Source: Escherichia coli
GTDB taxonomy: Bacteria > Pseudomonadota > Gammaproteobacteria > Enterobacterales > Enterobacteriaceae
Assembly (NCBI RefSeq): GCF_045037415.1
Contig: NZ_CP173438.1
Strand: one strand, 5' to 3'
DNA: 64,000 nt
How positions within the stretch are numbered: position 1 is the stretch's first letter; the number at the start of each line of letters is the position of its first letter. A program made the translations under genes and the position numbers. Shown here one piece after another: positions 1-37,400 of the stretch. The notes beneath the pieces were generated by a model. That model was not told where the DNA came from. It ran no database searches and was given only the letters and a program-made list of their open reading frames with translations.

Positions 1-10
1 AGGGCAAAAC

Positions 11-433
11 TCAGCTCACCGTCGAACACTTTCCCGCAGAAACAGGCTCTGCAGGCCCGGCGTCCTCTGCCTGTTCGGGGGCATTATTCACCACAAACTC
101 ATACATACCGGACAGCCGGTACACCACGTTTTCAGCATGAGAAATTGCCTCTGTGGGCCAGGTGGTAAGCACTTCCTGCTCAATCTGTTTAACGGCTTCA
201 TTCATGGACGGCATCTGCGTCTTCTTCGGATGGTTATGCCACAGGGACATCGCCACCAGAAACGCGCCGGTTCTGATGACGTCTTCCACAGTAACCTGCC
301 GGTTGCTGTCGGATCCCGCCGGTTCTGCCTGCCGTTTCATCAGGGCAAGATGCTCAATACGCTGCAGGGCTGACAGTTCAGAAAGCGTGACGGTCACGCC
401 GTTATATTCAAATGATTCGGTTTTCAGGAACAT
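11..433 (-). CDS. G: Tail assembly chaperone gpG
   Basis: 140-aa ORF MFLKTESFEYNGVTVTLSELSALQRIEHLALMKRQAE... matches recalled lambda G nearly residue for residue. Confidence 0.9.
   Translation of the reverse strand: MFLKTESFEYNGVTVTLSELSALQRIEHLALMKRQAEPAGSDSNRQVTVEDVIRTGAFLVAMSLWHNHPKKTQMPSMNEAVKQIEQEVLTTWPTEAISHAENVVYRLSGMYEFVVNNAPEQAEDAGPAEPVSAGKCSTVS
29..35 (-). other. Programmed -1 ribosomal frameshift slippery heptamer GGGAAAG for the G-T fusion
   Basis: Plus-strand ctttccc is the reverse complement of GGGAAAG and falls on the Gly-Lys codons near the 3' end of G, as in lambda; the gpT frame continues beyond the window start. Confidence 0.6.
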
Positions 434-448
434 CGCTGACTCTCCGGA

Positions 449-1189
449 TTAACTGGCGGTGACGGTGATTTCTGCAACCGCAGCAAACTCACCATTACCG
501 GATACAACCGGAATGTTGACCTTGCCTGCAGCAACGCCGTTCACGGTGATGGTCATACCGCTGACCGACACGGTGGCTTTTGTTTTATCCGCAGACACCG
601 CACGGAAGCTCTTGTCGGTTGCGCCCTCCGGCTGGAATGCCACGGTCAGCGTAGTGCTCTGCCCTTTCACTACGGAAGCACTGGCGGGTGTCACCGTCAT
701 GCCGGTTGTCGCCGTCACCGTGCTGCGATCTTCTGCCATCGACGGACGTCCCACGTTGGTGACTTTCACCGTGCGGGTGATCACTTCCTTCGCCGTCACC
801 GCCTTACCGATACTGCTGACCCAGCCGCGGAACACATCGACCGTGCCGTTCGGGAAGCGGATTTTATAGGCACGGGTATCCCCTTCATTAAACCACGCCA
901 GCAGCGCCTGCTGCCCCTGCTCTCCGGGCATCCACGCCAGCGTGAAGCTGGTATCTCCGGCAGATTTCTGCCCCTGCCCGGTCGCAGTCCAGTCCGCATC
1001 TTCATCATCGAGATAGCTGTCGTCATAGGACTCAGCGCTCAGTTCGCCGGGCGTCAGGTCTTTAACTTTAGCCAGACGCGACCAGTCAACGTCTGAAAGC
1101 GGGTTCGCATAAGGGTCACCGTTCCCCTTATAAACCCACAGGGTGGTCCCGGCCCCTTTCACCGGCATTACTGGATTTGGTACAGGCAT
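449..1189 (-). CDS. V: Major tail protein gpV with C-terminal Ig-like domain
   Basis: ORF 449..1219; [36 protein letters not shown]... matches lambda V; start placed at the internal Met that aligns with lambda. Confidence 0.9.
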
Positions 1190-11232: not shown

Positions 11233-11712
11233 TTTTATTCCTACGGGTCTTATTCTGACAATATATCCTGTGTTCCAGACTGCCACATCACCACATCCTG
11301 TGCCATTATCTGACTCACATTACATACATCGCATCGGGATACAGTAGTAGCACTTTCTGTAATACAGCTTCCTGTTTCTTCCACCATCGCACCGGGATAA
11401 ACCCGCGAATCATTAACGCGGTAAAAACCCGGTGTGCATCGTTTTTAATTATTCCCGCACACTCACGCAGAAGGAATTCCCCGTCGGGCTACGGTCATGG
11501 TTAATGCGGGAATACGGCGACGATACAGCGCAGCTAAAAGGGTAATGGACGGATAGACCGGTTTATTTCATTCCACAGGATTCTGAGTGTCCCCAACTTC
11601 CTCCAATAGTCTGAGCCCACCTGTGTAGTTTTAATTTTCATCAATCCATTTAACTATCGTTTAATTGTTGTCACATAGGATTCTGCCGTTTTTAACAATG
11701 CAGGATAATAAG

Positions 11713-12006
11713 ATGAAAAAAATGTTGTTTTCTGCCGCTCTGGCAATGCTTATTACAGGATGTGCTCAACAGACGTTTACTGTTGGAAACAAACCTACAG
11801 CAGTAACACCAAAGGAAACCATCACCCATCATTTCTTCGTTTCGGGAATTGGGCAGAAGAAAACTGTCGATGCAGCAAAAATTTGTGGTGGTGCAGAAAA
11901 TGTTGTTAAAACAGAAACCCAGCAAACATTCGTAAATGGATTGCTCGGTTTTATTACTTTAGGCATTTATACTCCGCTGGAAGCGCGTGTGTATTGCTCA
12001 CAATAA
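11713..12006 (+). CDS. bor: Bor outer-membrane lipoprotein (serum-resistance, Iss family)
   Basis: MKKMLFSAALAMLITGCAQQTFTVGNKPTAVTPKETITHHFFVSGIGQKKTVDAAKICGGAENVVKTETQQTFVNGLLGFITLGIYTPLEARVYCSQ matches lambda Bor; lipobox ITGC. Confidence 0.9.
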   Translation: MKKMLFSAALAMLITGCAQQTFTVGNKPTAVTPKETITHHFFVSGIGQKKTVDAAKICGGAENVVKTETQQTFVNGLLGFITLGIYTPLEARVYCSQ

Positions 12007-22700: not shown

Positions 22701-23652
22701 CTGCAACATTATCGCTGCTAAGCTGTTCAGCCAAGGAAACGCCCGGGCGATAATTAAACTCAACACCAAAGGTTGTATCGTGAGTGTTGCTCTGTCCTTG
22801 CTTATGCTGTGCAGAAAACTTAATCAGAGGAACTGGTGTATAAGAAATTCCCCCAGTAACTGCGTAAGGGTTTTCCTGCAGGTTATCGCTTCCAAATAAC
22901 CCGACATTTTTACCATAATATTTTTCAAACTGAATAGATGCCCCTAATTGCGGATAAGCAGGTAGCCATCCTTCAGCAGAAAAATCCCAGCCATTTGCAG
23001 GTCTTTCCAGATAATCATCAATATCACGACTGTTCTTCCAGTCAGATAGACCAAAATAGGTATTTACACCAAGCCTGAAATAATCCCTCCAGTACTCAAC
23101 CCCAAAACCTGCACGAGAGTGACTACGACTTAAATCGTAATCATAGAAAACATTCGCACCCAACATTGCGTTATCAGGAGTGAAATGACGAATCCCCAAA
23201 CCAATATTGGTCTGATTTCGGTCATCAGTACGATGTAGTGATGTCTGACTGAATAACACATAATCCTGAGTATCCAGCCATGGATATAAAAAGTCGAATG
23301 ATGAATCCTTCAAGGAAAAAGAATCATCGACATTAAGCTTGATGCGCGCATTGCCATATTGTTGCAACCAGTCGACGACCTCTTTTGTCGCCTGAGTTGA
23401 TAAAGTATTTACAGCAAAACTACTTGCATTATTATTCGCCAGGCTCTGACCTGCACTTGCTGCAAATGAGGCCACTTTATTTGCATGCTCATCGCTGGCA
23501 TAAATTTGCGTAACATCTTTATTACCAGATGATGCAAAACTGTTTGCTGGGATCAAAGAAAGAGAAACTGGAGATAATATCTGGGTAACAATTACCGACC
23601 ATGTAATCGCGCCAGATGCAGTTTTTTTTAACTTTTTATTCACAGTGGTCAT
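19744..23652 (-). CDS. Intimin/invasin-family inverse autotransporter adhesin with multiple bacterial Ig-like (Big) domains
   Basis: 1302 aa; signal-peptide-like N-terminus; region ...LYPWLDTQDYVLFSQTSLHRTDDRNQTNIGLGIRHF...GFGVEYWRDYFRLGVNTYFG...ERPANGWDFSAEGWLPAYPQLGASIQFEKYYG...YDFVERNNNIVLEYKKK closely parallels the recalled intimin beta-barrel domain; then a long Thr/Ser/Val-rich repetitive passenger; AT-rich upstream region. Confidence 0.85.
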   Translation of the reverse strand: MTTVNKKLKKTASGAITWSVIVTQILSPVSLSLIPANSFASSGNKDVTQIYASDEHANKVASFAASAGQSLANNNASSFAVNTLSTQATKEVVDWLQQYGNARIKLNVDDSFSLKDSSFDFLYPWLDTQDYVLFSQTSLHRTDDRNQTNIGLGIRHFTPDNAMLGANVFYDYDLSRSHSRAGFGVEYWRDYFRLGVNTYFGLSDWKNSRDIDDYLERPANGWDFSAEGWLPAYPQLGASIQFEKYYGKNVGLFGSDNLQENPYAVTGGISYTPVPLIKFSAQHKQGQSNTHDTTFGVEFNYRPGVSLAEQLSSDNVAVMREVQNRRYDFVERNNNIVLEYKKKHALKISLPESVQGEGESIIPVTLTINNASGGIKSVQWNDSAFTAAGGKISGNGTSWQITLPAYKSEGVNSWNVGATVQDNRGNVSNYAVMNISVTDSGVSTADSSFTLDGDSSPTISADSQSTYPIVLSLKDSNGKALTGLADDIEMSVEFTADSNSARQRETVTAPSLGAVEEISAGVYRSVLTAGSQAGTVRVTAKVQGKTFTLNIKQAAITDSDVSTADSSFTLDGDSSPTISADSQSTYPIVLSLKDSNGKALTGLADDIEMSVEFTADSNSARQRETVTAPSLGAVEEISAGVYRSVLAAGSQAGTVRVTAKVQGKTFTLSIKQTATTEPDSEVSAVLTAAPAEQVVGYNINLQLAVKDSQGNAITGDNTLSFYALNQAEGVEFGTVTEKDGVYSATVTSKRAGKITIGVKSDSHDFSGVKKEITFIEDRQQVTFSQFEASQNNALADGKQRNMVTVSLADRFGNVVPGYAVTLSLPAGITQVGGEHAVSTDENGNAIFALISSTPGSYVITAHAGSQMSTELTVTFASNMTGASLSLTPESSSLISNIPANGKDAAVLDVQLTNTNASVNGQKIQLITSSEGLSVPTNIVTDSTGHVSVPLTTVKAGEYTVTARVTDGSHSVESGSVKLTFVPDVASAELNMSVSKQEIVADGSENATVNIQLVDANNNAFTGEVDLTITPSTGASLTSSNLQLDAHGQATTQFTASKSGQYTIQAEYVLDGKRITASQNIDAVTDVKGAVLEITSSASSAVVSDTNNLVFTLLLKSKSGEALSGRALNVKTSGPSKYGALVVDKTTVTTDENGQATVSVHGRTVGSYKLTATLNELGSDVSAVKSFSLYADDANGVLTLTKDPGYETNDGSPVGIYARFVDHFGNPLSGTVEFSAGSEDSPDSQRVKMEPATVTLHWTGNAASEFSTYESGYHWIKAKITNSKNTYEKTIRTYVVKLPEKDS
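21628..22350. repeat. Near-perfect tandem direct duplication (2 x 357 bp) inside the adhesin gene, encoding a duplicated 119-aa Ig-like domain
   Basis: gcttaatactgagagtaaatgtttttccctgaacttttgcagttacacg... recurs 357 bp later with a few substitutions; protein shows two almost identical blocks (...STADSSFTLDGDSSPTISADSQSTYPIVLSLKDSNGKALTGLADDIEMSVEFTADSNSARQRETVTAPSLGAVEEISAGVYRSVL...); plus-strand shadow ORFs 21904..22119 and 22261..22446 translate identically. Confidence 0.9.
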
Positions 23653-33016: not shown

Positions 33017-34267
33017 TTACATATTCTTGATGATCGCGTCACCAAACTCTGAACATTTCAGCAGTTTAGCGCCTTCCATCAGACGTTCGAAGTCATAGGT
33101 TACGGTCTTGGCATTGATTGCGCCTTCCATACCTTTAACAATCAGGTCAGCCGCTTCAGTCCAACCCATATGGCGCAGCATCATCTCAGCGGAGAGAATA
33201 ATAGAGCCTGGGTTTACTTTGTCCTGTCCGGCATATTTCGGCGCAGTACCGTGGGTGGCTTCAAACAGGGCGCATTCGTCACCGATGTTTGCGCCAGGGG
33301 CGATACCGATACCACCAACCTGCGCTGCCAGGGCGTCAGAAATGTAGTCACCGTTCAGGTTCATACAGGCGATAACATCATATTCAGCCGGACGCAGCAG
33401 GATCTGTTGCAGGAATGCATCAGCAATCACGTCTTTAATGACGATCTCTTTGCCGGTATTCGGGTTTTTAACTTTCAGCCACGGGCCGCCGTCGATCAGT
33501 TCACCGCCAAATTCTTCACGCGCCAGTTGGTAGCCCCAGTCTTTAAACGCGCCTTCGGTGAACTTCATGATGTTGCCTTTGTGCACCAGGGTCACAGAGT
33601 CACGATCGTTAGCAATTGCGTATTCGATCGCTGCACGAACCAGACGTTTGGTGCCTTCTTCCGAACACGGCTTAATACCGATACCGCAATGTTCCGGGAA
33701 GCGAATTTTCTTCACGCCCATCTCTTCACGCAGGAATTTAATCACTTTCTCAGCGTCGGCAGAGTCTGCTTTCCATTCGATACCCGCATAAATGTCTTCC
33801 GAGTTTTCACGGAAGATAACCATATCGGTCAGTTCAGGGTGTTTAACCGGGCTTGGAGTGCCCTGATAGTAACGTACCGGACGCAGGCAGATGTAGAGAT
33901 CCAGTTCCTGGCGCAGGGCAACGTTCAGAGAGCGAATACCGCCACCAACCGGAGTGGTCAGCGGGCCTTTAATGGCAACGCGATATTCACGAATCAGATC
34001 AAGGGTTTCAGCAGGCAACCAGACGTCCTGACCATAAACCTGTGTGGATTTTTCACCGGTGTAAATTTCCATCCAGGAGATTTTACGCTCGCCTTTATAG
34101 GCTTTCTCGACTGCAGCGTCGACCACTTTCAGCATGGCTGGGGTTACATCTACACCGATTCCATCACCTTCAATGTAAGGGATAATCGGATTTTCAGGAA
34201 CGTTGAGTTTGCCGTTTTGCAGGGTGATCTTCTTGCCTTGTGCCGGAACAACTACTTTACTTTCCAT
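33017..34267 (-). CDS. icd: NADP-dependent isocitrate dehydrogenase
   Basis: 416 aa, [73 protein letters not shown]... matches E. coli Icd; known integration target of phage 21/e14-type integrases. Confidence 0.97.
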
Positions 34268-35101: not shown

Positions 35102-36723
<1,622 letters not shown>

Positions 36724-36758: not shown

Positions 36759-37400
36759 GTGGCAAAGAATTACTATGACATCACCCTCGCCCTGGCCGGT
36801 ATTTGTCAGTCGGCACGCCTGGTGCAACAACTCGCTCACCAGGGGCATTGTGATGGCGATGCGCTACACGTCTCACTCAACAGTATTATCGATATGAACC
36901 CCAGCTCAACGCTGGCGGTTTTTGGCGGCAGCGAAGCCAACCTGCGCGTCGGGCTGGAAACCTTGCTCGGCGTACTCAATGCCAGCAGTCGCCAAGGCTT
37001 AAACGCCGAATTAACCCGCTACACACTCAGTCTGATGGTGCTTGAGCGCAAACTCTCCTCAGCGAAAGGTGCGCTCGACACTCTGGGCAACCGGATCAAC
37101 GGCCTGCAACGCCAGCTCGAACACTTCGATTTACAGTCCGAAACGCTGATGAGCGCGATGGCTGCCATCTATGTTGATGTTATCAGCCCGCTTGGCCCGC
37201 GCATTCAGGTCACGGGTTCCCCTGCTGTACTGCAAAGCCCACAGGTGCAGGCGAAAGTTCGCGCAACCCTGCTGGCAGGCATTCGCGCCGCCGTGCTCTG
37301 GCACCAGGTCGGCGGCGGTCGTCTGCAACTGATGTTTTCTCGTAATCGCCTGACCACTCAGGCAAAACAAATTCTTGCTCATTTAACCCCGGAGTTGTGA
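36759..37400 (+). CDS. hflD: High-frequency lysogenization protein HflD
   Basis: ORF 36753..37400; (M)[31 protein letters not shown]... matches HflD; probable GTG start. Confidence 0.85.

Follow-up and report, generated by a model that had tools for sequence, protein, structure and literature searches.

Organization of the G/T locus

The stretch of Escherichia coli DNA analysed here (contig NZ_CP173438.1; the window, 64,000 nucleotides in full) begins within a phage tail module encoded on the minus strand, where coordinates descend in the direction of the genes. The following features lie at this edge.

449-1189, minus strand: gene V, major tail tube protein, directly 5' of G (open reading frame and RefSeq/phage annotation)
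440-445, minus strand: Shine-Dalgarno-like GGAGAG, 6 nt 5' of the G start codon (direct sequence reading)
11-433, minus strand: gene G, tail assembly chaperone of 140 aa, with ATG at 433..431 and stop TGA at 13..11 (PF06894, TIGR01674 and identity to lambda)
29-35, minus strand: slippery heptamer G GGA AAG (X XXY YYZ), putative site of programmed -1 ribosomal frameshifting, identical in sequence and register to the lambda site
11-28, minus strand: dual-coding overlap of the G end (CSTVS and stop, zero frame) and the T start (VFDGEL, -1 frame), by translation
1-35, minus strand: first 11 codons of the -1 (T) frame, GKVFDGELSFA, translated from 35 and cut by the window edge

On homology, the minus-strand open reading frame 433..11 is a lambda-type gene G. 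It matched Pfam PF06894 (Phage_TAC_2) with an E-value of 5.7e-59 and 197.9 bits (cut-off 27) and the NCBIfam equivalog TIGR01674 (phage_lambda_G) with 6.6e-63 and 210.7 bits (cut-off 74.45), shares 132/140 residues with lambda G, and is labelled gpG by RefSeq in identical genomes. The gene directly 5' of it, annotated as major tail protein V in phage 1W, supplies the synteny that defines the G/T position, and the same DNA is annotated V, G, T, H in public phage and E. coli records.

A sequence-only reading of this DNA had placed GGGAAAG at 29-35, at the Gly-Lys codons near the end of G. We confirmed the motif and assigned it to the minus strand, which that reading had left unstated: GGGAAAG is read from 35 to 29, and the plus strand at 29-35 is CTTTCCC. 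The zero frame of G decodes the heptamer as Gly134 (34..32) and Lys135 (31..29), after which five codons (CSTVS) precede the TGA stop at 13..11. In the -1 frame, the same letters read GGG (35..33) and AAA (32..30), and the frame stays open from 35 down to window position 1. Going 5' from the heptamer, the T frame is closed in the window by a stop 16 codons away, compared with 13 codons in lambda.

Continuation of the T frame beyond the window

The T frame had been described as extending past position 1, with a leftward extension proposed as a check. We ran this check on a near-identical public genome, so the continuation of T described here comes from outside the window's own record. A 25-kb query matched the E. 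coli O25b:H4-ST131 genome NZ_OY019088.1 at 100% in a single piece, the window minus strand overlaid it with 1 mismatch over ~61.6 kb, and window position 1 corresponded to position 11653 of its extracted locus (L003). The direction of the check, leftward, was correct; its reference to "upstream sequence" was not, as the sequence in question is downstream in gene direction.

In NZ_OY019088.1, the -1 frame from the heptamer comprises 146 codons and ends in TGA, the two other frames across the T region are stop-rich, and the G-T fusion amounts to 279 aa. The T-frame product is 100% identical to lambda T, and the G-T extension matched TIGR01715 (phage_lam_T) with 2.2e-55 and 185.7 bits (cut-off 77.35) and PF06223 with 7e-14 and 52.5 bits; a comparison of the fusion with the PDB gave no sequence match to solved structures. 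The tape-measure gene H (2562 nt) follows directly 3' of T in both the matching genome and phage 1W. The gene order is V-G-T-H-M-L-K-I-J in public records and in the matching genome, with the G/T pair flanked by the genes for the major tail protein and the tape measure. Around the site, the DNA is identical to that of lambda (NC_001416) over a span running from 24 nt 5' of the heptamer to 113 nt past its end, which bears out the earlier comparison of the heptamer with that of lambda.

Conservation of the heptamer among related phages

To place the site among its relatives, we used an IMG/VR scan that yielded 80 loci with G identities from 99% down to 68%, 77 of them with a complete G. GGGAAAG was found in the same register, exactly five codons before the G stop, in 76 of these 77 loci (68-99%), and the -1 open reading frame after the heptamer spans 105-154 codons where the contig allows. 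The single exception (L065, 1501-1924) carries an indel ~40 nt 5' of the heptamer that cuts G to 124 aa but leaves the heptamer and T in place; either the prophage is decaying or the indel is an error of sequencing. Shortened T frames were seen in two loci, L011 with 105 codons and L040 with 131 codons and what looks like an internal deletion close to the N-terminus of T. Together with the register and the homology to lambda G and T, this conservation upholds the earlier statement that the G/GT frameshift signal is intact.

The bare motif is not rarer than chance: the window contains 7 copies of GGGAAAG, where 7.2 ± 2.7 would be expected. Apart from the site in G, no copy (0/6) lies at the end of a long open reading frame in slippery register. 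We also screened all annotated coding sequences of the 30-kb region of phage and sit genes for in-frame X XXY YYZ heptamers with a long -1 open reading frame. This geometry screen returned 25 in-frame heptamers in 7,862 codons, approximately one per 300 codons, and a -1 open reading frame extending more than 100 nt past the stop was present, besides G, at sitB/sitC (ATGA overlap), at two sitD sites and in one hypothetical-protein gene. Heptamer geometry as stand-alone evidence was dropped, since the sitB, sitD and hypothetical-protein sites score too. Because neither the bare count nor the geometry is specific, the case must rest on homology and conservation; what goes beyond chance is the heptamer's register, position and conservation. 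These counts, including the few slippery-type sites with long -1 frames, are what one would expect if the heptamer were a chance occurrence with no decoding effect. However, its register and stop distance persist in the 76 loci even where the flanks have fully diverged, and the site is identical to the experimentally proven site of lambda, which leaves chance a negligible probability.

The most diverged group of relatives (68-71% identity) bears directly on how T is expressed. In these phages the upstream flank is unrelated (…GATGATGATTTTTCTGC vs …GCAGAGCCTGTTTCTGC) while the heptamer is unchanged; the T frame has stops 3-5 codons 5' of the heptamer with no start codon between, and the codon after GGG AAA is GTC or GCC, not GTG. 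Judged from these sequences, the diverged phages offer T no place to initiate at the site or just 5' of it, and frameshifting from G is therefore the likely route to T.

This observation is relevant to the possibility that T forms a gene of its own, with translation beginning at the GTG of window 29..27 and the heptamer being incidental. This GTG overlaps the heptamer by one base, its own first and the heptamer's last. GTG can serve as a start codon, and RefSeq lists a stand-alone "phage tail assembly protein T" from it, in lambda NC_001416 as well as in E. coli genomes (for example, L001 8972-9406 and L004 1116-1550). However, no Shine-Dalgarno sequence was found at a workable distance from it (the 20 nt upstream are GAGCCTGTTTCTGCGGGAAA), the most diverged relatives have the upstream stops just described, and the literature contains the T sequence only as the frameshift fusion gpGT (PMC5009743, PMC3296357, PMC4493119). 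Moreover, 16 relatives carry a non-start codon (GTC, GCG or GCC) in place of the GTG while keeping the heptamer and the T frame. Because of these replacements, the RefSeq "start" of T is best read as an annotation convention, and an independent T gene appears very improbable.

Substitutions in the 18-nt overlap also point to the -1 frame. Among the relatives, three substitution types are silent in the -1 frame and change a residue in G, and none shows the reverse. The -1 peptide is V/A-F-D/V-G-E-L, and the G tail varies (C/S/R/P, T/M/S, V/A). As T-silent substitutions alter G, the -1 frame is evidently the one under selection from the heptamer on, judging by these alignments.

Two further features of the relatives were observed. 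The G genes of L052-L065 (80-84% identity) contain a second in-frame heptamer, A AAA AAG, at approximately codon 37, after which the -1 frame stops within 3 codons; this is probably a chance site without function, and could at most serve as a ribosome sink. In L069-L084, G is only ~69% identical to that of the window, whereas nucleotide conservation over the first ~120 nt of T is much higher than in G. This pattern suggests either that a mosaic recombination boundary lies close to where G meets T or that the N-terminus of T is under stronger constraint.

Search for stimulatory elements

We then considered the elements that might accompany the heptamer. Downstream, a stem is predicted to begin 7 nt past the heptamer; in it, approximately window positions 21..14 pair with bases beyond the window edge and enclose a G+C-rich hairpin. 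The stem is paired in 10/10 distinct relatives, with one-sided changes only. Folded as a single sequence, the downstream region was no more stable than shuffled sequence (z = -1.09), and an Rfam search in E-value mode gave no match for it. RNAalifold and pair counting across the 10 distinct relatives found 0 compensatory changes in the stem, and shuffled controls equalled the observed value; these covariation controls are uninformative, because the relatives vary too little and the coding of T confounds what variation there is. That the predicted stem might act as a modest stimulator of lambda-type G-T frameshifting, undocumented in the literature consulted, is put forward as an improbable suggestion.

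An upstream Shine-Dalgarno stimulator was rejected, the upstream 30 nt not being conserved in the diverged group. The lack of a supported stimulator fits a low-efficiency site consisting of the heptamer only, without adding positive evidence for it.

Prophage and chromosomal context

The G/T pair belongs to a prophage integrated at icd, whose remaining landmarks in the window, with the adjoining chromosomal genes, are as follows.

11713-12006, plus strand: iss, increased serum survival lipoprotein, a bor-like virulence moron
16124-17155, plus strand: alpha/beta hydrolase
17182-19598: ISEc23, IS66-family element
19744-23652, minus strand: inverse autotransporter (intimin/invasin-like), 1302 aa
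31761-32903: integrase
33017-34267: icd
35617-36723, plus strand: mnmA, chromosomal part of the window
36759-37400: hflD, chromosomal part of the window

A cargo block occupies 16124-23652, between replication gene P and the nin region, and iss follows closely on the holin, endolysin and Rz genes of the lysis cassette, like bor in lambda. In the matching genome beyond the window (L003 20526-28750), split side tail fibre pseudogenes and the sitABCD iron/manganese transporter cargo are present, and a partial icd duplicate at the far prophage end marks the other attachment site. Many otherwise identical ST131 prophages match only ~90% of the 25-kb query, several of them without a listed ISEc23 transposase.

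This context raises the possibility that the signal is intact in sequence but a silent relic, the prophage being defective or never induced. The ISEc23 insertion and the large cargo between the replication and nin regions would be in keeping with such a state, as would the side tail fibre genes, which are annotated pseudogenes in the matching genome. However, side tail fibres are known to be dispensable in laboratory lambda, and the genes for integrase, excisionase, repressor, replication, Q, holin, endolysin and Rz are annotated intact, as are those for terminase, portal and head and the tail genes V-G-T-H-M-L-K-I-J. G and T themselves are undegraded, T to the point of 100% identity with its lambda counterpart. 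We therefore regard a silent signal as possible but unlikely; this alternative concerns the current use of the element and not its identity.

The chromosomal genes next to the prophage include one with a connection to the slippery codons. MnmA is the tRNA 2-thiouridine(34) synthase and modifies tRNA-Lys(UUU), the decoder of the slippery AAG/AAA, and when the MnmA pathway is lost, lambda G-T frameshifting increases and the yield of phage falls (PMC3296357). hflD (high frequency of lysogenization) adjoins mnmA. The closeness of mnmA and hflD to a lambdoid prophage at icd looks coincidental.

Discussion

Collectively, these findings identify the site, with a confidence that approaches certainty, as the programmed -1 ribosomal frameshift of the lambda-type tail chaperone genes G and T, in a lambdoid prophage at icd of an ST131-type chromosome. 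It is the already known textbook lambda G/GT frameshift, the founding example in dsDNA phages, which was reportedly characterized by Levin, Hendrix and Casjens in 1993 and by Xu in 2004 and 2013. The sequence of the site and its register, the homology and synteny, the open -1 frame and the conservation were read directly from the DNA; that ribosomes shift, how often they do so and how the chaperones act is drawn from experiments in lambda.

In lambda, ~4% of ribosomes slip at G GGA AAG, giving gpG and gpGT at ~30:1; G binds H, the T domain recruits V, both proteins are required for tail assembly but leave before the tail is completed, and the ratio is essential (PMC5009743, PMC3296357, PMC4493119, PMC7618472). 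GGGAAAG is given as the lambda G/GT slippery sequence in Table 1 of PMC3296357 and in PMC7618472. The slip in lambda exploits tRNA-Lys (mnm5s2UUU), and hypomodified tRNA-Lys leads to more frameshifting (PMC3296357, PMC7618472).

By analogy with lambda, the majority of ribosomes on the late mRNA would decode G GGA AAG in frame and terminate five codons on, yielding gpG of 140 aa. A few percent (~4% in lambda) would slip by -1 with tRNA-Gly and tRNA-Lys on GGA and AAG; the slipped tRNAs would re-pair on GGG and AAA, and decoding in the -1 frame would produce a gpGT of 279 aa, with the predicted junction peptide ...PVSAGKVFDGELSFALK. The G parts would coat the tape-measure protein H, and the rare T domain would recruit the major tail protein V, so that the tube polymerises to the correct length. 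Both gpG and gpGT would be absent from the finished virion.

The long product could in principle arise from transcriptional slippage, that is, stuttering of the RNA polymerase and not a ribosomal event, and polymerase slippage on homopolymer runs is used by some phage and bacterial genes (PMC5009743). The site has no homopolymer run longer than G3 and A3, far below the lengths established to support such slippage. The X XXY YYZ register is a requirement of the tandem tRNA re-pairing model, and in lambda, tRNA-Lys hypomodification shifts the G:GT ratio, which points to the ribosome (PMC3296357). A polymerase origin is accordingly extremely unlikely, and ribosomal frameshifting remains our reading of the site.

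The closest known system is the lambda G/G-T pair (NC_001416 9711-10549), which has the same heptamer, register, five-codon stop distance, 279-aa fusion and V-G-T-H order. G in the window differs from lambda G at 8/140 residues, and the host element here, a prophage at icd, differs from lambda in its immunity, replication and cargo genes. None of the differences from lambda touches the signal.

Long-tailed dsDNA phages as a class, reportedly described by Xu, Hendrix & Duda (2004), share two overlapping open reading frames between the major tail and tape-measure genes, the first of which ends close to a slippery sequence that gives rise to a minor fusion product, as here (PMC5009743, PMC4493119). 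Most members of this wider class share the architecture only and neither the sequence nor the heptamer, whereas the window site is a sequence-level member of the lambda subfamily.

A cellular parallel is found in E. coli dnaX (A AAA AAG; tau/gamma), which likewise makes a -1 slip using a single tRNA-Lys (mnm5s2UUU) that pairs weakly with AAG. Frameshifting in dnaX reaches ~50%, and two elements drive it, an internal Shine-Dalgarno sequence on the upstream side and a hairpin on the downstream side. Unlike dnaX, the window site is without a conserved upstream Shine-Dalgarno sequence or a supported downstream structure, in keeping with the low rate of ~4% in lambda.

The 3-kb head-tail segment was matched in 4,023 of 5,426 complete E. 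coli genomes. For annotation, G-T here should be recorded as a joined, frameshifted coding sequence and not as a free-standing, GTG-started T. In summary, the intact signal together with the intact tail module suggests that a cargo-carrying ST131 prophage, with iss, sitABCD and an inverse autotransporter on board, could still build tails.
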